From the NCBI GenBank assembly GCA_002353275.1, contig DEJH01000041.1:34201-98200 (forward strand): 64,000 bases of DNA, given 5' to 3'. The DNA is from Bacillales bacterium UBA2753. Lineage in GTDB: Bacteria > Bacillota_I > Bacilli_A > RFN20 > CAG-826. The notes under the pieces were generated by a model. The model saw only the letters and a list, made by a program, of their open reading frames with translations, was not told where the DNA came from and did not search any database. Within the stretch, counting starts at the first letter, position 1, and each line of letters begins with the position of its first letter. Positions 216 to 16,579 of this stretch are shown one piece after another. Made by a program: the position numbers and the translations under genes.

Positions 216-2843
216 ATGAAAAAGAAACACATAGCAAAAGATATTGTAACTTATTCTCCTTCTATGGAAGAGGGGTTAAGCGAAGAAATCGTTAACCAAA
301 GAAAAGAAGAAGGATTAGTTAATATCACTGTTAGTCCTACTAATAAAAGTTATACCCAAATCATCTTTGGAAATATTTTTACTTTCTTTAATATCTTGAT
401 GTTCGCAATCGCGGCAGTCCTTTTACTCGTCGTAGGAGCAAAAGTCGTCACAAACCTAATGTTTTTAGGAATCATTATCGCTAATTTGTTAATCGGCACG
501 ATTCAAGAATGTAAAAGTAAACACACAATTGAAAAATTAAAATTGCTTAATGATTCTAAAATCAAAGTTAGAAGATCATCTAAAGAAGTAGAAATCTTAC
601 CTAGTGAGATCGTTTTAAACGATGTCGTTATTCTTTATCCTGGAGATCAAGTCCCAGTTGATGGAGAGATTCTTTCTAAAGAAGTCATCGAAGTTAATGA
701 ATCTTTATTAACTGGTGAATCTGTCCCAGTAAAAAAGAAAGCTGGAGATACTTTATTTGCAGGAAGCTTCATCGTTAGTGGAGTTGCTTATTTTAGAGCG
801 GATAAGATCGCTAACGACACCTATGTTCAATCAATTGAATCGAAAGCTAAATTAAGCAAACAACCAAAATCTCGCTTAATGTTAGCGATTAATAAAATCA
901 TTAAAGTAATGGCCTTTATCGCTATCCCACTAGCGATCATCGTCTTTGTTAATGAATTTATTCATAACACCATTACTCCACCACTAGATAAACTAGGAAA
1001 TCCAGTTCCATTATTCCCAACTTTCTGGGGACAAGAGAGTTCTTTAACTAATGCGGTATTTTATGGTGGTACCACTATCGCATATATGATTCCATGTGGA
1101 ATGGCCCTTTTAGCCTCTGTCGCCATGGCAACAGGCGTTATTAAACTCGCACAAAATAAAACTCTCGCACAAAATCTATATTCCGTTGAACTCCTCTCAA
1201 GAGTGGACACTTTATGTTTAGATAAAACTGGAACTCTTACTGATGGAACAATGACTGTCACTGAATATCATCTTCTAGATAAGAAAATCAAAGATGAGGA
1301 ATTAAAAAAGCTCATCTCCTCATATCTATCCGCTTTTAAGAGTGAAAACCAAACATCAATCGCGATGATTAATAAATTTGGCAAGAATTTAGAATACGCA
1401 ATTGATAAAACCATCCAATTCTCATCCGCAAGAAAATATTCCGCTGTTAAATTTAAGAATTTAGGTTGGTACGCTTTAGGGGCACCTGAATATCTTACTG
1501 GAGAAGATGAACTTCTTAAGAAAGTGGATGAATACGCTAAAAACGGCTTAAGAGTGATTCTTTTAAGTAAGATTGAGGAAGAATTCACTGATGAAAATAA
1601 ACTCCCAGGAAAAAGAAATAATGTCGCGATGTTTGTAATTAGAGACACTATCCGTCCTGAAGTATATGACACGATGAAATGGTTCTCAGAAAACGATGTC
1701 GATATCAAAGTTATCTCTGGAGATAATATTGGCACGGTCAGTTATATCGCTAAAGAAAGCGGAATTAAAAATTATGACAAAGTCTTTGATATGTCGACTT
1801 ATAAAGAAGGAGACAATTTAGAAGAAATCGTCATGAACCACGCGATTTTTGGTCGAGTCACTCCTGATCAAAAAGCAGATATCATCGCTGTACTTAAAAA
1901 GAATGGTAGAACTACTGGAGTTACTGGTGATGGTCTTAATGACCTTCTCGCCTTTAAACAAGCGGATTGTAGTATCGCTCTCGCTAATGGAGCGGCCGCC
2001 ACTAAAAATGTTGCTAACTTAATTCTTTTAGATAGTAACTTCGCCAATATGAAAGAAGCCGTCTATCAAGGTAGACGTGTCGTTAATAATATCCAAAGAA
2101 GTGCCTCATTATTCGTGATGAAAGACTTCTGTTGGTTATTTATCACTATTCTTCCTATCCTATTAGGCTTACAACATATTATTCAACCAACTGTGATGAC
2201 AATGGTTAATGTCTTTATTACTGGAATCGCATCATTCTTTGTGGCCTTAGAAGCAGATAAGACCAGAGTGAAGGGTGATTTCTTTAAGAATGTTGTTTCT
2301 AGTGGAATCACTTCTGGTATGTATATGTTCTTACCAGTCTTATTCATTATGGCTTATGCCTTAATTAGACAACTCTCTATGACAGGAACAGTGGATGTTA
2401 ATGCATTAAAAACAGTTGTAAGTGATGGACAAGTATTAAAATTTGGTTGGGTAACAGTGATCTCTTTAGCAATCACGATAAGTGGATTTGTAATCTTCTT
2501 CTTTAACTGTATGCCTTTCACTAAATATCGAAAATATTTATATGGAATCACTGTTGGAGTAATTTTAGTGATTCTCTATTTAGCACCTGAATTCTTCATT
2601 ATCAGTGGCACTGATATGCTTGCGGGAGTAGGTGGCAAAATCAGTTTAATGTTTAAATATATCTTCTCTCGCGTTGGGGATAACGCTCAATTTGGGTTAT
2701 ATAAATTAATGGAAACTGAACAGTGGGTATTCCTATTAATATATACATTAATAAGTGTTCCATTATTCATCGGGAACAAAAAAGTCACCGGATGGGTGAC
2801 TGATAAGCTTCTCTTCTCAAAAAGAGAATTTAAGGACGAATAG
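216..2843 (+). CDS. cation-transporting P-type ATPase (Ca/Mg type), 875 aa
   Basis: Actuator motif LTGESVPV, phosphorylation site CLDKTGTLT, hinge motif VTGDGLNDLLAFKQADCSIAL, multiple TM helices at both ends. Confidence 0.9.
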   Translation: MKKKHIAKDIVTYSPSMEEGLSEEIVNQRKEEGLVNITVSPTNKSYTQIIFGNIFTFFNILMFAIAAVLLLVVGAKVVTNLMFLGIIIANLLIGTIQECKSKHTIEKLKLLNDSKIKVRRSSKEVEILPSEIVLNDVVILYPGDQVPVDGEILSKEVIEVNESLLTGESVPVKKKAGDTLFAGSFIVSGVAYFRADKIANDTYVQSIESKAKLSKQPKSRLMLAINKIIKVMAFIAIPLAIIVFVNEFIHNTITPPLDKLGNPVPLFPTFWGQESSLTNAVFYGGTTIAYMIPCGMALLASVAMATGVIKLAQNKTLAQNLYSVELLSRVDTLCLDKTGTLTDGTMTVTEYHLLDKKIKDEELKKLISSYLSAFKSENQTSIAMINKFGKNLEYAIDKTIQFSSARKYSAVKFKNLGWYALGAPEYLTGEDELLKKVDEYAKNGLRVILLSKIEEEFTDENKLPGKRNNVAMFVIRDTIRPEVYDTMKWFSENDVDIKVISGDNIGTVSYIAKESGIKNYDKVFDMSTYKEGDNLEEIVMNHAIFGRVTPDQKADIIAVLKKNGRTTGVTGDGLNDLLAFKQADCSIALANGAAATKNVANLILLDSNFANMKEAVYQGRRVVNNIQRSASLFVMKDFCWLFITILPILLGLQHIIQPTVMTMVNVFITGIASFFVALEADKTRVKGDFFKNVVSSGITSGMYMFLPVLFIMAYALIRQLSMTGTVDVNALKTVVSDGQVLKFGWVTVISLAITISGFVIFFFNCMPFTKYRKYLYGITVGVILVILYLAPEFFIISGTDMLAGVGGKISLMFKYIFSRVGDNAQFGLYKLMETEQWVFLLIYTLISVPLFIGNKKVTGWVTDKLLFSKREFKDE

Positions 2844-3330
2844 GTTTTTGAGAATAATATTTCCTTACCAAATCATATAGCCTTTTTTGTGGATCGGTTA
2901 TAAGTTCTTTTTCGCCTCGAGATTCCGCTATCCTAATAATCGCTTCTTCAATGCTTAAAGAGTGATAAAGAGGATAAACGCTAGCGAGATAAGAGATTGG
3001 TATACTTTTAACAATTTGCTTACAGGTAAGCGAATAAATATATGACCATTCACGTAATAAATATCCAATCCACGCCATAATATGAGGGGCAAGTACTGTT
3101 CCTCTTTTCATATGGATGTTACTAGATACTTGACGGTAAATAAGTTCATCGCCGTATTCATAATTAAAGATTTCTAGTCGGTCCATCCAATAGCTATATC
3201 TAGAGTTAAGATAGACCTTAATGAAATACATTGAAGGAATCCCTTCTTTTGCTGATCTTTCAAAGATTCTAGATTGAAGTTTACAGAGTTCGTAACATCT
3301 ATCATCTTTTTCTCTTAAATAATTCATCAA
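2830..3330 (-). CDS. hypothetical protein, downstream partner of a DUF3990-like gene (possible DUF3791-type partner)
   Basis: 166-aa ORF overlapping the stop of the upstream DUF3990-like gene. Same two-gene arrangement recurs at 25189-26882. Confidence 0.45.
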   Translation of the reverse strand: MMNYLREKDDRCYELCKLQSRIFERSAKEGIPSMYFIKVYLNSRYSYWMDRLEIFNYEYGDELIYRQVSSNIHMKRGTVLAPHIMAWIGYLLREWSYIYSLTCKQIVKSIPISYLASVYPLYHSLSIEEAIIRIAESRGEKELITDPQKRLYDLVRKYYSQKPIRP

Positions 3331-4174
3331 AATAGCTACCCTCCCTTCGATATTTTATTAACGCTAACCTGGCCTTTTGAATGCCTTCGTTAGATAGGTC
3401 GTTTTTAAGTGATAAATAGTGTTCTTTTTCTTTTTCACATAGATACATATGATCTATTTCTTTTAGACACTGGCACGCTTTCATACTTTTAAATACATAT
3501 TGCTTACCTAAATTTGTTGCTGCTAATGCGTGAAGACACGCTTCATCTGTAATTTCGCTTCTAGAAAAAGAGTCAATTGTTTTAAACATTTCGTTATCCG
3601 CAATAGGAGCAATGATTAAATCGCTTTCTTCTACTTTGTTAATCAAAGATTTGATTGAATCATTTATTTCATAATCTTTAAAAGCATTACGATAGTACAT
3701 GACAATATAAAGCCAATCGCGATTTGCGTTCAGTTCTAATATTTTTAAATTAGAATCTTCTTTAAGATAAAAAGCATAAACTGAACTATTTTTAAAATTG
3801 CAAACCCAAGTTGCAGCTTGTCTTAACGATTCCCCAGCATAAAAAGCGGTTCCAAAATCCTTTGGAAGAGAAGAATGTTTATTATCAATCTCTCCATCAA
3901 TATTGTCTTTTGCTCCGTGAAACAAAAGAAGTCTTCCGTTTGCGTCATCTTTATAGATCATTTCTTTTGTTTTATTGAGGTCGAATCTATATTCATTGTT
4001 GAAGAAATATGAATAAAACTTCTCCATACTTTGTTCTGTATATCCACACTCGCCTTTTATCAGGTGATTAACAAAAGTCCTAGAGACCCCAACATTATCA
4101 GCGAGTTCTTCGGTTGATATCCTAAAGAAATCCATCATTAAATTGATATCAGAAAGCAAATTATAGTTCTTCAT
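3302..4174 (-). CDS. XRE-type HTH fused to a DUF3990-like domain, 290 aa
   Basis: N-terminal HTH (ELADNVGVSRTFVNHLIKGE). Central LLLFHGAKDN...DFGTAFYAGESLRQAATWV matches the DUF3990 signature (YHGS ... DFGxGFYxT ... QAxxWA). Confidence 0.6.
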   Translation of the reverse strand: MKNYNLLSDINLMMDFFRISTEELADNVGVSRTFVNHLIKGECGYTEQSMEKFYSYFFNNEYRFDLNKTKEMIYKDDANGRLLLFHGAKDNIDGEIDNKHSSLPKDFGTAFYAGESLRQAATWVCNFKNSSVYAFYLKEDSNLKILELNANRDWLYIVMYYRNAFKDYEINDSIKSLINKVEESDLIIAPIADNEMFKTIDSFSRSEITDEACLHALAATNLGKQYVFKSMKACQCLKEIDHMYLCEKEKEHYLSLKNDLSNEGIQKARLALIKYRREGSYFDELFKRKR

Positions 4175-8241: not shown

Positions 8242-8318
8242 GGCTGAGTAGCTCAGTTGGCTAGAGCAGGAAGTTCATACCTTCAAGGTCGGCGGTTCAA
8301 ATCCGTCCTCAGCTACCA
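8242..8318 (+). tRNA. tRNA-Met (anticodon CAU), probably elongator type, CCA encoded
   Basis: GGCTGAGTAGCTCAGTTGGCTAGAGC ... anticodon loop ttCATac ... GGTTCAAATCC ... CTCAGCTACCA. Resembles Bacillus elongator tRNA-Met. A tRNA-Ile2 (lysidine-modified CAU anticodon) cannot be excluded. Confidence 0.8.
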
Positions 8319-8416: not shown

Positions 8417-9271
8417 ATGATAAAACACTCAGTTAGGTATTTTAACAGTAAACCAGTAAGGGCTATTTGGGATAGTGAGGAGTCTTCTTGGTGGTATTCC
8501 GCTACAGATTTAATTGATATTTTGGTAGAGCCTAACTCTCCGAAACGATATTGGAATAACGTCAAAGTTCGTAATCCTGAGTTGTCTCCTTTTTGTGGAC
8601 AGCAAAAATTGCTCGCTAATGACAATAAGCAATATCTTTCTGAAGTAATAAATGAAAACGGAATCAAACTATTAATAAATATCATTCCATCAAAATACAA
8701 AAAACAGGTTTTGGATTGGATTAATGGAAGTATGGATCCAATCGACGAACAAAGTAAGCGAAAAGCGTATCAACTATATAAAACAAACTTAATAAATGAT
8801 GATGAAATCGGCAAAACCGTTTCTCTTCAAAAAATCCACGCTTACTTATTTGAGGGTTTATATGAATTTGCAGGAAAGATAAGAACTAGAACAATCTCAA
8901 AAGGTGGATTTGTGTTCGCTAACGGTGATTATCTCCCTCAAACACTTTCTCAAATCGATAGGATGCCTCAATCTACATTTGATGAAATTGTTGAGAAATA
9001 TGTTGAAATGAATATTGCCCATCCATTCATGGAAGGAAACGGAAGAGCGACAAGAATATGGTTAGATTTAATATTCATTAAAGAACTTAAGAAATGCATT
9101 GATTGGTCATCAATCGATAAGAAAGACTACTTTGATGCGATGATGGTTAGTCCAAACGATGACACTAAAATCAAAGAAGTACTTAAGAGTGCGTTAACAG
9201 ATGATATTGATAATAGAGAACTATTTTTAAAAGGAATTGATACCTCTTACTATTACGAAGAAGTTGAATAA
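8417..9271 (+). CDS. Fic/Doc family protein (putative AMPylase) with an N-terminal Bro-N/antirepressor-like domain
   Basis: Fic motif HPFMEGNGRATR. N-terminus KPVRAIWDSEESSWWYSATDLIDIL resembles Bro-N. No obvious RBS, so start uncertain. Confidence 0.75.
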   Translation: MIKHSVRYFNSKPVRAIWDSEESSWWYSATDLIDILVEPNSPKRYWNNVKVRNPELSPFCGQQKLLANDNKQYLSEVINENGIKLLINIIPSKYKKQVLDWINGSMDPIDEQSKRKAYQLYKTNLINDDEIGKTVSLQKIHAYLFEGLYEFAGKIRTRTISKGGFVFANGDYLPQTLSQIDRMPQSTFDEIVEKYVEMNIAHPFMEGNGRATRIWLDLIFIKELKKCIDWSSIDKKDYFDAMMVSPNDDTKIKEVLKSALTDDIDNRELFLKGIDTSYYYEEVE

Positions 9272-12014: not shown

Positions 12015-12142
12015 TTTTTTACTCTCCTATTAATTCTTTTTAAGTATAAATCAAATTCGTCATGTATTTTATGTAGAATTCATTTTTTCTTGAGTCAATC
12101 AAACAATAACTTTTATTAACATTCTCAATAAATGTGCCTGTT

Positions 12143-12165
12143 TGTGTCCTACTTTATATGATATT
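12143..12165 (+). promoter_or_regulatory. operator-like motif TGTGTCCTACTTTATATGATATT, copy 1, in the WYL gene promoter
   Basis: 22 of 23 nt identical to 13953-13975. Followed by TATAAT at 12166-12171. Confidence 0.5.
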
Positions 12166-12187
12166 CTATAATACAAGGAAACCAAAT

Positions 12188-13072
12188 ATGTCAAAGATTT
12201 CGCAAGAATTAAAAGTCCTCTTATATCTCAATCAAAGATATACGAGATCAAAATGGATTACGATTAAAGAAATCGCTAATTATCTTGAAGTTAGTAATAG
12301 ACAAGCTAGACGATATCTAGAAGATTTAAACATGATTCCAGAGATTGATGTCGGCACTAAGCTTGGTCGTAATGGAGGATATCGCTTAAGAACTCCATTA
12401 GATAAAGGTTTTGCCATGCCAGAAAACATCGTTTTAGCGTTATCAATCGCGATGAAACGTAATGAGAAAATAGAAACTGTGTTATCTACCTTACCAAACT
12501 ACGTTATTACTGATTCGATCATTGGAGATAATGAAATAGAGAATGACTCATTAGATAAGTTAGAAATCATCATCAAGGCAATTCAGAACCAAAAACAAGT
12601 CGCTTTCCACTATCAAGATATCCCTCAACTATATTTAGTGGATCCATATAAAGTTGTTTTAACAAATCACACCTATTACTTATATGCAAGGCATGACGAT
12701 GTCACAAAGAAGTTTGATATAAGTGATATAAAGGAATTAAAACAATGTGGATCTTTTAAGCCATCAAGCAAAGTTAATGATGAAATACTAAATAAACTAA
12801 GTAGATACGGAGTTAAAAACGGCAAGGAAGCCACCTTAAGAGTTAAATGTGTAGATATGAAATCCTTGTTAACTTTTGATAAATATTTTGAAGGTAAAGG
12901 GGTCAAAAACACGAAAGAACTCACTTATTCTGTTATTGGTAACAGTGAAAATGAACTCTATTATCCATTGTTTAGAATAAGCACAAAGAGTTATAAATTT
13001 TTAGACGAGGAATTCAAAAAGAAATATATAACTTATTTAAAAAATCAAATTAAGAGTATCAAGGAAAAATAA
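12188..13072 (+). CDS. WYL-domain transcriptional regulator (HTH-WYL, YafY/BrxR/CapW-like)
   Basis: N-terminal HTH IKEIANYLEVSNRQARRYLEDL ... GGYRL. Central WYL-like block VAFHYQ...YLVDPYKVVLTNHTYYLYARHDD. Start moved to MSKISQ (RBS aaggaaacc). Confidence 0.7.
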   Translation: MSKISQELKVLLYLNQRYTRSKWITIKEIANYLEVSNRQARRYLEDLNMIPEIDVGTKLGRNGGYRLRTPLDKGFAMPENIVLALSIAMKRNEKIETVLSTLPNYVITDSIIGDNEIENDSLDKLEIIIKAIQNQKQVAFHYQDIPQLYLVDPYKVVLTNHTYYLYARHDDVTKKFDISDIKELKQCGSFKPSSKVNDEILNKLSRYGVKNGKEATLRVKCVDMKSLLTFDKYFEGKGVKNTKELTYSVIGNSENELYYPLFRISTKSYKFLDEEFKKKYITYLKNQIKSIKEK

Positions 13073-13073
13073 T

Positions 13074-13925
13074 ATGGACTTAAAAGACGAATTCGATTTA
13101 GCGGTATATGAAAGTATCCCTTTTCATGGGCACATAAACACCAAAAGAAACGATAACAAATACTATGATGATGCCTATGCTGAACCAATAAAGAAATATT
13201 TTAAAAGTAATGGAGTCGAGTCATACGAGGTAAACTACAGCAAGCGATATAAATGCACATCTATCTGTGCCTTTGCTTCTAGTGGTAGGATTTGCTATTT
13301 ATATTTCAGACCAAAGAACGCTAAATTTGAGGAAAGCCTATCTAACGACTTATCAAACTCCAGGCCAACAAAAATGGATGCCGTCGTTAAAGACACTAAT
13401 TACGAATGCAAATGCCAAGAAATCGTTAGCAAATCACATACACCATTAAGTGTTAAATATTTAGAATCAAATCTTTTTAAAGAATTTAATGTTAATAATT
13501 ACAACGTAAAACCAGTTGAAGAAAAAGGTGAAGAAACCGGCAAACCATCAATAAAACAAGTTTTGGAATTTGACGTTAATGAACTAAATATAAAGTTGAA
13601 AGGCAAAAATAATTATTCCAATCTTCACTTCGACTTAAAACAATTGATTTGCCACCTAATCGCAATCGCTAATAATAATCAAAGCAATTCACCAAAAATT
13701 CTGAAATATGTATTTTTCACCCCTAACAAAGAAGTCGTTTTGAAATATAAGAAGGTTGAAAAACTGTATAAGGAGTTGAAAGAAGAAATAAACGCAATAT
13801 TAAACAAGGATAGTTCAATTTCTAGATTTGCGGAGAACCACAACATTAAAATCATAATTGATGACTCAAGTTTTGTGGAAATCAAGGACGTTGAAGACTT
13901 CAATTACCTAGAAGCTTTTAAATAG
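13074..13925 (+). CDS. hypothetical protein translationally coupled to the WYL regulator; N-terminal region has a PD-(D/E)xK-like D...ECK pattern
   Basis: ATG 2 nt after the WYL stop. MDAVVKDTNYECKCQE fits the hD-x11-ExK nuclease motif. No recognisable family for the C-terminal half. Confidence 0.55.
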   Translation: MDLKDEFDLAVYESIPFHGHINTKRNDNKYYDDAYAEPIKKYFKSNGVESYEVNYSKRYKCTSICAFASSGRICYLYFRPKNAKFEESLSNDLSNSRPTKMDAVVKDTNYECKCQEIVSKSHTPLSVKYLESNLFKEFNVNNYNVKPVEEKGEETGKPSIKQVLEFDVNELNIKLKGKNNYSNLHFDLKQLICHLIAIANNNQSNSPKILKYVFFTPNKEVVLKYKKVEKLYKELKEEINAILNKDSSISRFAENHNIKIIIDDSSFVEIKDVEDFNYLEAFK

Positions 13926-13952
13926 TAATAAAACATAACTAACCCGCCATTA

Positions 13953-13975
13953 TGTGTCCTACTTTACATGATATT
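13953..13975 (+). promoter_or_regulatory. operator-like motif TGTGTCCTACTTTACATGATATT, copy 2, upstream of 14009
   Basis: Near-identical to 12143-12165. Sits about 35 nt before the 14009 start. Confidence 0.5.
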
Positions 13976-14008
13976 TATATTATGTAGAGAAAATGAAAGG
14001 ACACTATT

Positions 14009-14524
14009 ATGGCGGTTTTTAATAAGAAGAAACTATATAGTATCTTAGTGAATACTTATGATGTTGAAAGTAAAACAGCAGAAATCATCATTGATAATTT
14101 AGAAAGTAGGCATCATCTTTCAGAATCAGAAGAGATATTGCTTTTGTCTCACGAGATTCCTCAATCTTTTATTAATGAAATTCAGCAGATGGATAGCACT
14201 ACCTTTGTAGGTCCATTCTTTTATATAGGTGGAAAAATATTCGCTTCAAAGAAAAAGGTATCACCTTTTGATCAAAAGCAAAGATTCTTTGATTCAGAAA
14301 TATCTCATTTCGATTTCTTTAACACTCTTCTTATTGATGGAGATTATGGCAATTATCCACGAGGAAGAGTGATTTACGACTCTTTAAATTCAACATACCT
14401 CATATATATGGATAAGAGCCTCTTCAGAAAAAACATCAAAGAACAAATATTGATGGAATTTGGATTACAGGATGAAAAAGTGAGTTTTAAAAATGACACT
14501 CACTACACTCATGATTACTTATAA
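14009..14524 (+). CDS. hypothetical protein, 171 aa
   Basis: ORF preceded by RBS aaaggacact and by operator copy 2. No recognisable motifs. Confidence 0.55.
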   Translation: MAVFNKKKLYSILVNTYDVESKTAEIIIDNLESRHHLSESEEILLLSHEIPQSFINEIQQMDSTTFVGPFFYIGGKIFASKKKVSPFDQKQRFFDSEISHFDFFNTLLIDGDYGNYPRGRVIYDSLNSTYLIYMDKSLFRKNIKEQILMEFGLQDEKVSFKNDTHYTHDYL

Positions 14525-14526
14525 AT

Positions 14527-14760
14527 ATGTTTGAACTAATTTGTATGTCTATTTTAGGTATCGCTTATATCGATGCATTTGTAAAAGAAGAAATAGAAGA
14601 GAAAGCGCAAAAAGAAAAAGAAAGGATTAACGAAATAAAAATATCAGTGTTTTGTTTTGCAATTAGACATCATCTTAATTATGACAATGTCGTAAAAATG
14701 CTCCAGAATAAAACACTAAAATTTGAGGATATTAGAAAAGATAGATATGAACATAAATAA
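14527..14760 (+). CDS. hypothetical protein, 77 aa
   Basis: Starts 3 nt after the 14009-14524 stop. Coiled-coil-like EEIEEKAQKEKERINEIK. Confidence 0.45.
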   Translation: MFELICMSILGIAYIDAFVKEEIEEKAQKEKERINEIKISVFCFAIRHHLNYDNVVKMLQNKTLKFEDIRKDRYEHK

Positions 14761-14890
14761 AACCAAAGAACGGATCATTAAAGAGTTATCTATTAATAAA
14801 ATTAAAGGGATTGGATGGTTACAAAAGAAATATAAGATCAGCTTCCGCTTAGCGAAGGAAATCTACCTCGAACATTGTAATAAATCATAA
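14747..14890 (+). CDS. possible 47-aa helix-hairpin-helix protein (below the ORF-track length cutoff)
   Basis: MNINKTKERIIKELSINKIKGIGWLQKKYKISFRLAKEIYLEHCNKS. L..I.GIG...A..I matches an HhH motif. Overlaps the preceding ORF by 14 nt. Confidence 0.3.
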   Translation: MNINKTKERIIKELSINKIKGIGWLQKKYKISFRLAKEIYLEHCNKS

Positions 14891-14989: not shown

Positions 14990-15201
14990 GCGAAATAATA
15001 TTATGCCCACCCAAATGTCGATTCAGAGACATTAAACCTGATGCACTTGTGGTGGCGCACAATAAAACGCTAATACAATAGGTGTTAGCAATGTCACATA
15101 TACATTGCGTGATACAACCGATCTTCGCGATGTGATCCCAAATACATCGTTTGAGACAATCGACCTTCGCAATGTGGTCCAGAAAACATTGCTTTTTTAT
15201 T
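14990..15201 (+). ncRNA. candidate structured RNA or leader: three related hairpins ending in an intrinsic terminator
   Basis: Hairpins GCAATGT-cacatat-ACATTGC, CGATGT-gatcccaaat-ACATCG and GCAATGT-ggtccagaaa-ACATTGC, then TTTTTTATT. Upstream helices ATGTC...GACAT and CCACC...GGTGG. About 150 nt upstream of 15356. Confidence 0.3.
15169..15201 (+). terminator. intrinsic terminator (third hairpin of the structured region)
   Basis: GCAATGT-ggtccagaaa-ACATTGC followed by TTTTTTATT. Confidence 0.6.
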
Positions 15202-15355: not shown

Positions 15356-16579
15356 ATGGATCAAAAAAATCAGAACCGTTCTAAATATATATTACTAACC
15401 GTATTATTCATTCTTCTTTTAGGGGTGATTATTACTTTCCCTACTTCTTTAGCTTTAGATTTTGCTAGTAAGAACACTTATCGACTTGTGATATTTGGTT
15501 TTTCTGTTTTTGATATATTCACTTTGTTATTTTTATCCATTGCTGAATTTGCCTCTCTATTTTTTGATAAGACTGCAAATAAGAAGACATTATTCGCTAC
15601 AATTTTCTTTTTAGTCGGATTCTTATTCTCTTCTGATTGGTTTGAATCAGTCAAATATATGGGAGCGAATATCACTAATGAACTCATATTAATGTGTTCC
15701 ATCATTTCTAATATCTCTTTATTGATTGGAATTATTTTCTTATTCAGTTTTATCCAACAAGATTATGAGATAAAGAAATATAATATCTACCACTATTTCG
15801 CTTTATCTTTGCCGACAATTCTATTTATTCTCTTCTCGATTATTCAATTAGATATTGGAGTGATTATTGTTACTTCTCTTGAATGTGGATATATATTCTT
15901 CTTTGTTATTCTTTATTTAATTAAACTCAAAGGAAAGAATGATAACTTCGCGGGTTATATATCTTTATTAATCGTTTCTTTAGTAAGTGTTTCTCTTTTA
16001 TTAAACGTCTTAGAATTTAATACATATATCCATCTATCTTCACTAGGAATGGTCTCTTTCTTATTCTTTATTATCTATAGCGGATATATCTTCATCTATG
16101 TCAATTATCTGATTGATAAAACGAAAAAGACATATAACTATGAAGATAAGATTAAACAAAGTGAAATTAATATAGATAACAAGATGGAAGTGAGCTGTTT
16201 TAATTCTTTTGATTGTTTTTATAAAGGTAGTAGAGTGAATTTCCCATCAAAGAAAAGTAAAGAATTCTTCGCTCTTCTTGTTTCTCTTAACGGAAAAGCC
16301 TTAACGATGGAAAAAGCGATTACATATCTATATCCTGATAAAGATATTGAACTCGCTAAACGTAGCTATCGCGATATCGTTTATAAATTAAGAAGATATT
16401 TCCAAATCATTAAGTTTAATGGAGTAACCTTTAAACGAGCAGAAACAATATTAGATATCTCCTATATCAATTGTGATTATCTTGATGTCATTAACAAAAA
16501 GAAAAAATATGATTCTTCTTCATTAATGCCTGAATATGATTGGTCAATAGAACTAGAATCAACTTTAGAAAATATTTAA
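15356..16579 (+). CDS. membrane-embedded transcriptional regulator: N-terminal multi-TM domain plus C-terminal OmpR/SARP-type winged helix
   Basis: About 8 predicted TM helices in residues 1-250. C-terminus VNFPSKKSKEFFALLVSLNGKALTMEKAITYLYPDKDIELAKRSYRDIVYKLRRYF matches the trans_reg_C / BTAD pattern. Confidence 0.65.
   Translation: MDQKNQNRSKYILLTVLFILLLGVIITFPTSLALDFASKNTYRLVIFGFSVFDIFTLLFLSIAEFASLFFDKTANKKTLFATIFFLVGFLFSSDWFESVKYMGANITNELILMCSIISNISLLIGIIFLFSFIQQDYEIKKYNIYHYFALSLPTILFILFSIIQLDIGVIIVTSLECGYIFFFVILYLIKLKGKNDNFAGYISLLIVSLVSVSLLLNVLEFNTYIHLSSLGMVSFLFFIIYSGYIFIYVNYLIDKTKKTYNYEDKIKQSEINIDNKMEVSCFNSFDCFYKGSRVNFPSKKSKEFFALLVSLNGKALTMEKAITYLYPDKDIELAKRSYRDIVYKLRRYFQIIKFNGVTFKRAETILDISYINCDYLDVINKKKKYDSSSLMPEYDWSIELESTLENI

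Follow-up and report, generated by a model that had tools for sequence, protein, structure and literature searches.

In this study, we analysed a 64,000-nucleotide window from Bacillales bacterium UBA2753 (contig DEJH01000041.1, positions 34,201 to 98,200) and characterized a cassette of five genes organized in two operons. The first operon encodes a transcription factor with a winged helix-turn-helix (wHTH) and a WYL domain, followed by open reading frame 2 (ORF2), and the second one encodes the small proteins ORF3, ORF4 and ORF5. We found that the promoters of both operons share a duplicated sequence, which is most likely the site of the cassette's own WYL regulator. Comparison with related cassettes suggests that the invariant core of the system is a PD-(D/E)xK-type protein together with an ORF3-type protein. 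With moderate confidence, we propose that the cassette is a nuclease module triggered by single-stranded DNA (ssDNA), controlled by the WYL factor and equipped with polymerase-derived accessory proteins, and that it plays a role in biological conflict. The copy in the window is a polymerase-less form in which the conserved residues of ORF2 and ORF3 are all intact. Its features are the following.

12136 to 12167, + strand: promoter and putative operator 1, serving the regulator-ORF2 operon, with GCC at 12136-12138, TGTCCTA at 12145-12151 and the extended -10 element TGATATTCT at 12159-12167.
12188 to 13072, + strand: wHTH-WYL transcription factor of 294 amino acids (aa), recognized from Pfam, PADLOC and orthologues in the same position.
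13074 to 13925, + strand: ORF2, 283 aa, a likely PD-(D/E)xK-type protein, judged from invariant residues, an AlphaFold2 (AF2) model and a transitive profile link.
13946 to 13979, + strand: promoter and putative operator 2, serving the ORF3-ORF4-ORF5 operon, with GCC at 13946-13948, TGTCCTA at 13955-13961 and the extended -10 element TGATATTTA at 13969-13977.
14009 to 14524, + strand: ORF3, 171 aa, an N-module derived from PolC fingers followed by a novel C-domain, from a family alignment, hidden Markov model (HMM) searches and AF2.
14527 to 14760, + strand: ORF4, 77 aa, a conserved cassette member with homologues after ORF3.
14747 to 14890, + strand: ORF5, 47 aa, homologous to the N-terminus of cassette polymerases by tblastn and a family HMM.

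The original prediction described a near-identical 23-nt repeat, TGTGTCCTACTTTA(T/C)ATGATATT, at 12143-12165 and 13953-13975 on the + strand, and proposed that it lies in the promoters of both operons. Both statements hold. A search with TGTGTCCTACTTTAYATGATATT that permitted up to three mismatches returned exactly these two sites in the window, with no third copy, and none of 100 dinucleotide-preserving shuffles contained a match to the 23-mer. A degenerate core, TGTCCTAN{5,8}TGRTAT, likewise finds the same two sites only, with 0.06 expected. The repeat lengthens upstream to 30 nt (12136-12165 and 13946-13975, 87% identity), GCC being common to both copies. The first copy lies 23 nt before ATG 12188 and the second one 34 nt before ATG 14009.

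To place these sites in context, about 12 related cassettes were gathered from metagenomes via homologues of ORF2, ORF3 and a cassette polymerase described below, and the box searches covered the window and the fetched loci, about 600 kb altogether. The repeat is conserved at both promoter positions in every related cassette, even though ORF2 there is only 33-75% identical to the window ORF2. It stands before the regulator gene in the window and in loci L001, L003/4, L029, L030, L037 and L040, and before the second operon in L001, L003/4/6, L028, L029, L030, L037, L040-42 and L043. The resulting consensus reads nGCC-N6-TGTCCTA-N6/7-TG(A/G)TATT, and the bases around it diverge between lineages. 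Across lineages, the best-conserved part of the box is GCC plus TGTCCTA, which is not promoter-like. Matches to a regular expression for the full element are confined to regulator-type loci, at the promoter positions only; the 33 other loci (372 kb in total) contain none. Because the box is conserved at both positions, co-occurs with this type of regulator and is absent elsewhere, the view that the duplicated sequence is a genuine shared cis-element of both operons is supported. That the repeat is instead a chance duplicate, or a generic promoter element unrelated to the regulator, is hardly credible. The shared sequence does include a -10-like element, as any promoter would, but the shuffles yielded no match, a third copy is missing from 64 kb, and it is GCC and TGTCCTA, found only alongside the regulator gene, that are best conserved. 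The generic-element explanation, which had been named as a possible refutation of the original prediction, was thus not borne out.

The regulator itself was confirmed by HMM. The protein encoded at 12188-13072 matches Pfam WYL over residues 124-185 (2.8e-8, 34.1 bits, cut-off 21.8) and HTH_11 (1.4e-5, 25.3 bits, cut-off 25), with partial Rrf2 and HTH_Mga matches in residues 2-72; its N-terminus also matches the HTH of AtxA in the PDB (1.6e-4), and the PADLOC WYL model scores 6.7e-20. Pfam WCX gave no match at E<=1 in this protein, in which a C-terminal region of about 100 residues is conserved. Orthologues with 62-81% identity occupy the same position in the related cassettes, and all of them begin with MSKISQELK, which sets the start at ATG 12188. 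The GTG at 12134, used in the ORF listing and in public gene calls (312-aa product), was rejected as an artefact that would cross the operator. The predicted tight coupling to the 283-aa protein also stands, as a single base separates the regulator stop (TAA 13070-13072) from the ATG of ORF2 at 13074, and the two genes overlap in orthologues. At L030 4996-6771, the regulator and the ORF2 homologue form one 591-aa frame, either a natural fusion or a sequencing artefact. The regulator is presumed to control its own expression.

The architecture of the two promoters bears on the mode of control. In the window, TGTCCTA lies 7 nt upstream of a TGn-TATT extended -10, and TGn-TATTnn is the sole conserved -10-like element at a workable Shine-Dalgarno distance; TGn-TATT and this distance together would place +1 of operon 1 near 12174. 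Taking TGn-TATTnn as -15 to -7 from such a predicted start, TGTCCTA would span about -29 to -23 and GCC about -38 to -36. A consensus sigma-70 scan found a canonical -35/-10 pair at neither site, and no dyad symmetry in GCC-N6-TGTCCTA was seen in about 20 sites across lineages, the symmetry of the box amounting at most to direct GCC/GTCC half-sites one helical turn apart. The idea that the box serves an alternative sigma factor as its -35 was dropped, since it stands only 9-10 nt from the -10. On a separate note, GGACAC at 14000-14005, in the Shine-Dalgarno region of ORF3, is the reverse complement of GTGTCC in the box (13954-13959), about 40 nt downstream of it. The same hexamer precedes ORF3 in L001 and L030 and is missing in L003 and L040; it could be a second half-site or a product of chance.

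Activator-dependent promoters typically lack a -35 element. The operators of CapW and BrxR are reportedly inverted repeats, and the DriD site is said to be an inverted repeat located upstream of the -35. Among characterized WYL activators, PafBC binds at -26 of promoters that it activates by sigma adaptation, and the homodimeric SiwR needs a conserved -26 element containing GGA (PMC10693628). The complement of TGTCCTA contains GGA. The cassette resembles the PafBC and SiwR systems in the presence of an element near -26, given the predicted start, and in the absence of a -35, and it resembles these two and DriD in the wHTH-WYL build of the regulator, in the expected ssDNA signal and in the location of the regulator gene beside or within the genes it regulates. 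By contrast, the cassette encodes a single regulator instead of a PafB/PafC pair, its box sequence and cargo are different, and similarity of the window subgroup of regulators to PafBC, SiwR and DriD is undetectable by profile. In fact, a profile of this subgroup detects no solved WYL regulator, and for this reason we dropped the attempt to place the window regulator near activators or repressors by sequence. A mixed profile that includes Bacteroidales members does find PafBC (2e-14), DriD (3e-10), CapW (2e-5) and BrxR (4e-4), and the closeness to PafBC and DriD is due to those Bacteroidales members.

In PafBC, DriD, SiwR and CapW alike, the WYL domain is the sensor of ssDNA (PMC11804915, PMC9186387, PMC10693628, PMC11662680), and ssDNA is, by analogy, most likely the signal of the cassette regulator whichever the control mode. 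How this signal would act is less certain. The original prediction assigned the regulator to the BrxR/CapW class, whose members typically repress phage-defence operons until DNA damage or infection releases them. In this model, ssDNA binding would release both operons from repression at the box with the same parts otherwise in place. The studied WYL regulators that lie beside defence genes are indeed ssDNA-released repressors: CapW responds to ssDNA in this way (PMC11662680), and BrxR reportedly does so too (PMC9122601). CapW and BrxR, known from CBASS, BREX and other defence islands, are of the same domain type and, like the cassette regulator, head patchy, defence-island-associated operons; autoregulation is likely in both cases. 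Moreover, a regulator bound between -38 and -23 of such a promoter could block the access of RNA polymerase, and the extended -10 TGnTATT could give basal transcription without an activator. On the other hand, the conserved element GCC-N6-TGTCC is asymmetric, neither promoter has a recognisable -35, and the -26 position matches that of PafBC/SiwR activator sites. In addition, no known defence-system model fits the cargo, Pfam WCX is undetected in the window regulator, and the profile similarity to CapW and BrxR comes through Bacteroidales members only. Repression is not supported by the site, and we regard it as a credible but doubtful option. Because the box is asymmetric, lies near -26 and is accompanied by no -35, as at PafBC and SiwR sites, we mildly favour activation over derepression by analogy with these systems.

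The second product of operon 1, ORF2, is likely a PD-(D/E)xK nuclease-like protein of an undescribed family. The D...ECK motif noticed in the original prediction is real, since D102, E111 and K113 are invariant in 25 diverse family members, together with S69, S70, R72, E86, D92, C114, E116, K189, Q190 and H194. The AF2 model is very confident, with a predicted local distance difference test (pLDDT) score of 94.6, and shows a helix (70-81), three strands (84-89, 99-105 and 108-113), a second helix (188-201) and a further strand (208-216). In the model, this order fits the alpha-beta-beta-beta-alpha-beta core of PD-(D/E)xK enzymes, with D...ExK on adjacent strands. A word-indexed search collected 43 clusters of the family, none of them with a precomputed Pfam domain, and an exhaustive search collected 380 clusters at E<=1e-3; a scan of a genome collection returned only distant relatives (24-36% identity). 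The ORF2 profile found nothing meaningful among PDB sequences. A link to known nucleases comes from two proteins that occupy the ORF2 slot in other cassettes. By hhalign, the ORF2 profile matches a 306-aa protein of L040 (76%, E 2e-5), and the ORF2 alignment matches a 303-aa protein of L048 (89%, E 2.3e-6) across the MD...ECK and KQ..H motifs. The L048 protein in turn matches REase-ARP at 27.5 bits (Pfam cut-off 27), as well as PDDEXK_13 and PDDEXK_11. ORF2 thus has the D...ExK signature in common with REase-ARP (PF22558) and other PD-(D/E)xK families, and relatives in its slot reach or approach the Pfam cut-off; it differs from REase-ARP in forming its own family of about 380 clusters, with the extra invariant motifs ASSxRL and KQLxxH and no direct Pfam match. 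Comparison with the AddA/AddB nuclease domains of L007, as single-sequence templates, revealed no similarity by hhalign.

ORF3 belongs to a family of 41 homologous clusters and is built from two domains (AF2 pLDDT 86.5), a four-helix N-module of about residues 1-62 and a C-domain of about residues 65-171. An HMM of the N-domain was built without the L043 sequence and run against a database of 2,621 sequences. Of the 120 PolC-family proteins, 72 were matched at E<0.01, with a best E of 6e-8, and every match fell on PolC residues ~1187-1311. This alignment with the fingers identifies the N-module as a degenerate fragment of PolC fingers. Consistent with this, the 463-aa ORF3 homologue of L043 continues into PolC palm/fingers sequence, with IKFLYWMPASLEQIRVAYFLAKV aligned with PolC; it carries a precomputed DNA_pol3_alpha match and has lost two of the three catalytic Asp. 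With BLASTP, the long ORF3 forms gave no significant match to the cassette polymerase, and it took an HMM to reveal the homology. The C-domain, for its part, has the motifs GPFF, SH, DYGNYPRGRV, D and D-HY-H, of which GPFF, SH, DYG-YPRGRV, D and D-HY are invariant, and also occurs alone (~110 aa) or attached to different N-terminal regions. Searches of Pfam and PDB and with Foldseek returned nothing for it, nor does its HMM match PolC. For the complete protein, Foldseek of the model against PDB gave no hit at E<=0.001, and the ORF3 profile found nothing meaningful among PDB sequences.

The other two products of operon 2 are smaller. The N-terminus of ORF4 is hydrophobic and leads into a charged helix, and homologues of the protein follow ORF3 in L001, L003-6, L030, L037 and L040-42. 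Seven lineages have ORF4 after ORF3. ORF5 is 53% identical to residues 9-44 of the L003 polymerase (tblastn, E 3e-4) and aligns with the first 45-50 residues of the L003 and L040 cassette polymerases, with a family HMM match at ~1e-24. At the DNA level, the window and L003 cease to be homologous near 14875, just past the ORF5 module, and tblastn detected no further polymerase remnant, palm or PHP domain in the window, which therefore holds only relics of PolC, with no catalytic residues. We considered whether ORF5 is the stump of a pseudogene and dropped the idea in view of its stand-alone homologues in L043 (65 aa), L035 (97 aa) and L045 (96 aa), which make ORF5 a module in its own right. It had been described as helix-hairpin-helix-like, which could not be confirmed; the sole hint on its fold is that the homologous N-terminus of the polymerase weakly resembles FtsK-gamma, a winged helix (E 0.096), and ORF5 is possibly a small winged-helix module. 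ORF3, ORF4 and ORF5 themselves match nothing in Pfam, PADLOC, PHROGs or NCBIfam. Altogether, the earlier statement that the cargo has no known family still applies to ORF4 and the ORF3 C-domain, and no longer applies to the ORF3 N-domain (PolC fingers), ORF5 (PolC N-module) or ORF2 (REase-ARP link).

Gene fusions connect the two members of the core. The 358-aa protein P0029 (L007 6001-7077) is an ORF2 with the ORF3 N-module at its C-terminus, and the 483-aa protein P0101 carries a complete ORF3-type protein ahead of an ORF2-type domain; ORF3-type genes also adjoin PD-(D/E)xK genes in L035, L045 and L048. Because such fusions occur in other genomes, ORF2 and ORF3 probably act as a complex, following the Rosetta-stone argument.

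Several relatives of the cassette also encode a polymerase. In L003/5/6 and L040-42, the order is regulator, ORF2-type gene, box, ORF3, ORF4 and a polymerase of 893-896 aa, the L003 (7744-10434) and L040 versions being 53% identical. In L043, the box is followed by a long ORF3, ORF5, a 98-aa ORF and a 741-aa polymerase. Over its full length, the cassette polymerase aligns with the crystallised construct of Geobacillus PolC, which was engineered without N-terminus and exonuclease (E 2e-189), and hence represents a natural PolC without the N-terminal domain, OB fold, exonuclease and C-terminal end. It keeps PDIDLN and K(M/I)DILG, that is, the three catalytic Asp, in three lineages and appears catalytically intact as judged from these motifs. 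Such short PolC proteins are rare, with 4 clusters in 5.8 billion sequences (P0225-P0228), and those inspected were all in this cassette; the next matches are ordinary Bacilli PolC proteins of 1,470-1,490 aa with 41-42% identity. The polymerase is missing from the window, L001, L029, L030 and L037.

A comparable arrangement was found in a second phylum. In metagenome-assembled genomes of Bacteroidales, distant ORF2 relatives (24-30% identity) come directly after a regulator with WYL and WCX domains (WCX at 6e-11 to 3e-9) and have truncated DnaE-type proteins (366-840 aa) as neighbours, whose third catalytic Asp is changed to Asn or whose active site is gone. A WYL regulator, an ORF2-type protein and a cut-down C-family polymerase thus travel together in two phyla, each with its own polymerase type. 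Repeats resembling TCTGCC-N7/8-TTTTGC occur between the Bacteroidales WYL and polymerase genes (L013 6738-6861 and 8650-8760; L014 9760-9913 and 14790-14935; L019 6394-6509) and represent a candidate operator of this branch, unlike the Bacilli box. Other loci combine the modules differently. In L038 (5754-9981) and L039, a MazG-like gene and a helicase gene of the SLFN-group-3/DUF2075-like type lie directly upstream of an ORF2 homologue and two small genes of no assigned family; the L038 helicase has weak PADLOC matches to PDC-S41, Nhi and AbiO, and these loci look like a different system that re-uses the ORF2 module. L045 (2130-7619) contains a WYL/WCX regulator, a PvuRts1I-like SRA endonuclease, PDDEXK_4, a 96-aa ORF5-like protein, a 110-aa ORF3 C-domain and further uncharacterized genes, in what appears to be another arrangement of the same small modules.

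The distribution of the cassette is patchy and cross-phylum, and its surroundings fit the defence setting suggested in the original prediction. AbiEii adjoins the cassette in L003 and L037, TIR genes occur in the vicinity of L001 and L048, restriction-modification genes of types IIG and I adjoin L040 and L043, and HepT/MNT and AbiEii are present in L048, so that the neighbourhoods fit a defence island. The PvuRts1I-like enzyme of L045 and the SLFN-like helicase with MazG of L038 count among these defence-type neighbours as well. In the window, a Fic/DOC gene whose product has a Bro-N domain (8417-9271) comes after a tRNA-Met (8242-8318), and on the - strand a DUF3990 gene (3302-4174) and the gene of its 166-aa partner (2830-3330) overlap. 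Located a few kb away from the cassette, these genes may be of the toxin-antitoxin or abortive-infection type. Downstream, at 15077-15192 (+), the window holds a full-model match to the Rfam Fusobacteriales-1 RNA (RF02920; 53 bits, gathering 52.1, E 1.9e-5), which sits between ORF5 and a gene for a 407-aa membrane protein (15356-16579). The window belongs to a gut-metagenome contig of 116 kb (ENA ERZ964416), and its host has the look of a low-GC member of the Bacillota rather than of a Fusobacterium.

Taken together, these data lead us to the following model for the proposed nuclease module. The two operons would constitute a regulon under their own WYL factor, which would recognise GCC-N6-TGTCCTA at both extended -10 promoters. 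Its WYL domain would sense ssDNA produced by DNA damage or by phage or plasmid replication, as its characterized counterparts do, and this signal would turn both promoters on, by direct activation of the PafBC/SiwR type or, alternatively, by release of a repressor. Operon 1 would then yield more regulator and ORF2 as a PD-(D/E)xK nuclease-like effector, and operon 2 would yield ORF3, a catalytically empty relic of PolC fingers joined to a novel domain, along with ORF4 and ORF5, the latter as a small DNA-binding-type module. The polymerase-derived parts may steer the nuclease to DNA structures of the replication type or to partners in the replisome. As the polymerase is optional and often dead, the conserved activity cannot be DNA synthesis, and for that reason we read the polymerase-derived parts as serving targeting, sensing or scaffolding. 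A role in conflict, either anti-phage or against mobile elements, has in our opinion an even chance of being correct; it is favoured by the patchy cross-phylum distribution and the defence and toxin-antitoxin neighbours, and we consider it more likely than DNA-damage tolerance. A more specific version is speculative and rather unlikely. The dead or truncated copies of PolC in Bacilli and of DnaE in Bacteroidales might be sensors or decoys, which would bait replisome-targeting phage factors or recognise the primer-template structures of foreign DNA as it replicates. In both cases this would license the PD-(D/E)xK nuclease, with the ssDNA-sensing WYL regulator restraining the module.

Several observations weigh against a conflict nuclease. 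The intact exonuclease-less PolC of the relatives fits translesion synthesis or mutagenesis at least as well as defence. Neither the ORF2-ORF5 proteins nor the relatives' polymerase match any PADLOC defence model, no ORF2 relatives were found on 2.9 million viral contigs, and the neighbourhood evidence comprises about ten contexts, anecdotal and with no enrichment statistic. The downstream ORFs do accompany WYL genes in the related cassettes, but about half of the fetched ORF2-family loci have neither a WYL gene nor a polymerase nearby; in these, ORF2 stands alone, beside the SLFN-like helicase and MazG (L038) or fused to parts of ORF3 (P0029, P0101). As for ORF2, the nuclease assignment depends on motifs and a transitive profile link, direct searches of Pfam, PADLOC, PHROGs and NCBIfam being empty and Foldseek of the model against PDB and BFVD giving no match at E<=0.001. 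By its sequence, the window regulator could be assigned to neither the activators nor the repressors. The transcription starts were deduced from the DNA, and recognition of the box by the regulator, ssDNA as its signal, the choice between activation and repression, nuclease activity, complex formation and the biological role are all predictions.

The strongest competitor for the biological role is a DNA-damage tolerance or mutagenesis cassette analogous to ImuA-ImuB-DnaE2. In such a mutasome, the nuclease and accessory proteins would serve an error-prone PolC, the WYL regulator would sense ssDNA at stalled forks, the PolC fragment of ORF3 would be an ImuB-like adaptor, and the window copy would be a decayed or polymerase-less remnant. 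The likeness is considerable, as both are stress-regulated, patchy cassettes that combine a proofreading-less second C-family polymerase, a dead polymerase-derived adaptor and an accessory protein; the imuABC cassette is said to have been described by Erill et al. in 2006 as patchy and horizontally spread. The three catalytic Asp kept by the exonuclease-less PolC in three lineages, and the rarity of this short PolC and its distinctness from the host enzyme, also speak for this role. The same applies to the regulatory side, as PafBC, DriD and SiwR run DNA-damage regulons, PafBC and SiwR using -26 elements, and the box lies near -26 with no -35. Set against these points, the polymerase is PolC-type and absent from most cassettes, including the window and L001, L029, L030 and L037, the Bacteroidales polymerases have lost the third catalytic Asp or more, and the control is by WYL and not LexA. 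The dead part is a PolC fragment and not a Y-family protein, a PD-(D/E)xK protein is present, and any RecA-like (ImuA) or Y-family component is absent. Furthermore, the genes nearby are of the restriction-modification, Abi and TIR kinds and not of the repair kind, and a mutasome like this is absent from surveys of bacterial polymerases (PMC12926913, PMC6511836). We therefore judge the mutasome unlikely, though deserving of attention. Much less probable is a cassette that maintains or replicates an unrecognised mobile element, whose propagation the polymerase, nuclease and regulator would serve. Such an element would account for the cross-phylum distribution, for the L010 relative of ORF2, which lies among DnaB, FtsK, DnaA-like and PolC genes, and for cassettes with a 100% identical ORF2 (P0005) and different flanks in L003, L004 and L006 (SpoU methylase; PNP_UDP_1 and MazG-like; PTAC and TSCPD). 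Nevertheless, no integrase, transposase, relaxase or terminal repeats were seen beside the cassette in the window or at the inspected loci, the viral contigs gave 0 matches, and the polymerase is usually absent or dead.

With respect to known systems, the regulatory half of the cassette is a member of the known WYL regulators with a previously undescribed box, and the cargo is undescribed in the libraries (PADLOC 2.0, Pfam, NCBIfam and PHROGs) and literature searched, where no matching description of WYL and PolC/DnaE cassettes was found. Two surveys of bacterial C-family polymerases exclude fragments that are truncated or inactive and contain nothing similar (PMC3919608, PMC12926913), and a survey of Y-family polymerases and mutasomes makes no mention of such a cassette (PMC6511836). 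The cassette stands a real chance of being an immune module of a categorically new, polymerase-derived kind. A picture is emerging of WYL regulators as general ssDNA alarms for repair regulons or immune systems, and the compact regulator-operator pair described here could show whether low-GC Bacillota of the gut make use of the activator mechanism of Actinobacteria. At least two protein families are represented in the cargo for which structure prediction is confident and no structural or sequence relatives are known, and the components are small and experimentally tractable. More generally, our results point to an unreported habit of WYL-nuclease modules, which travel with cut-down or dead copies of replicative C-family polymerases; if these copies are sensors or decoys, the pairing of polymerase and nuclease arose at least twice. 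Either role would be undescribed, whether polymerase relics guide an immune nuclease or a PolC-based counterpart of ImuABC affects mutagenesis in gut bacteria.

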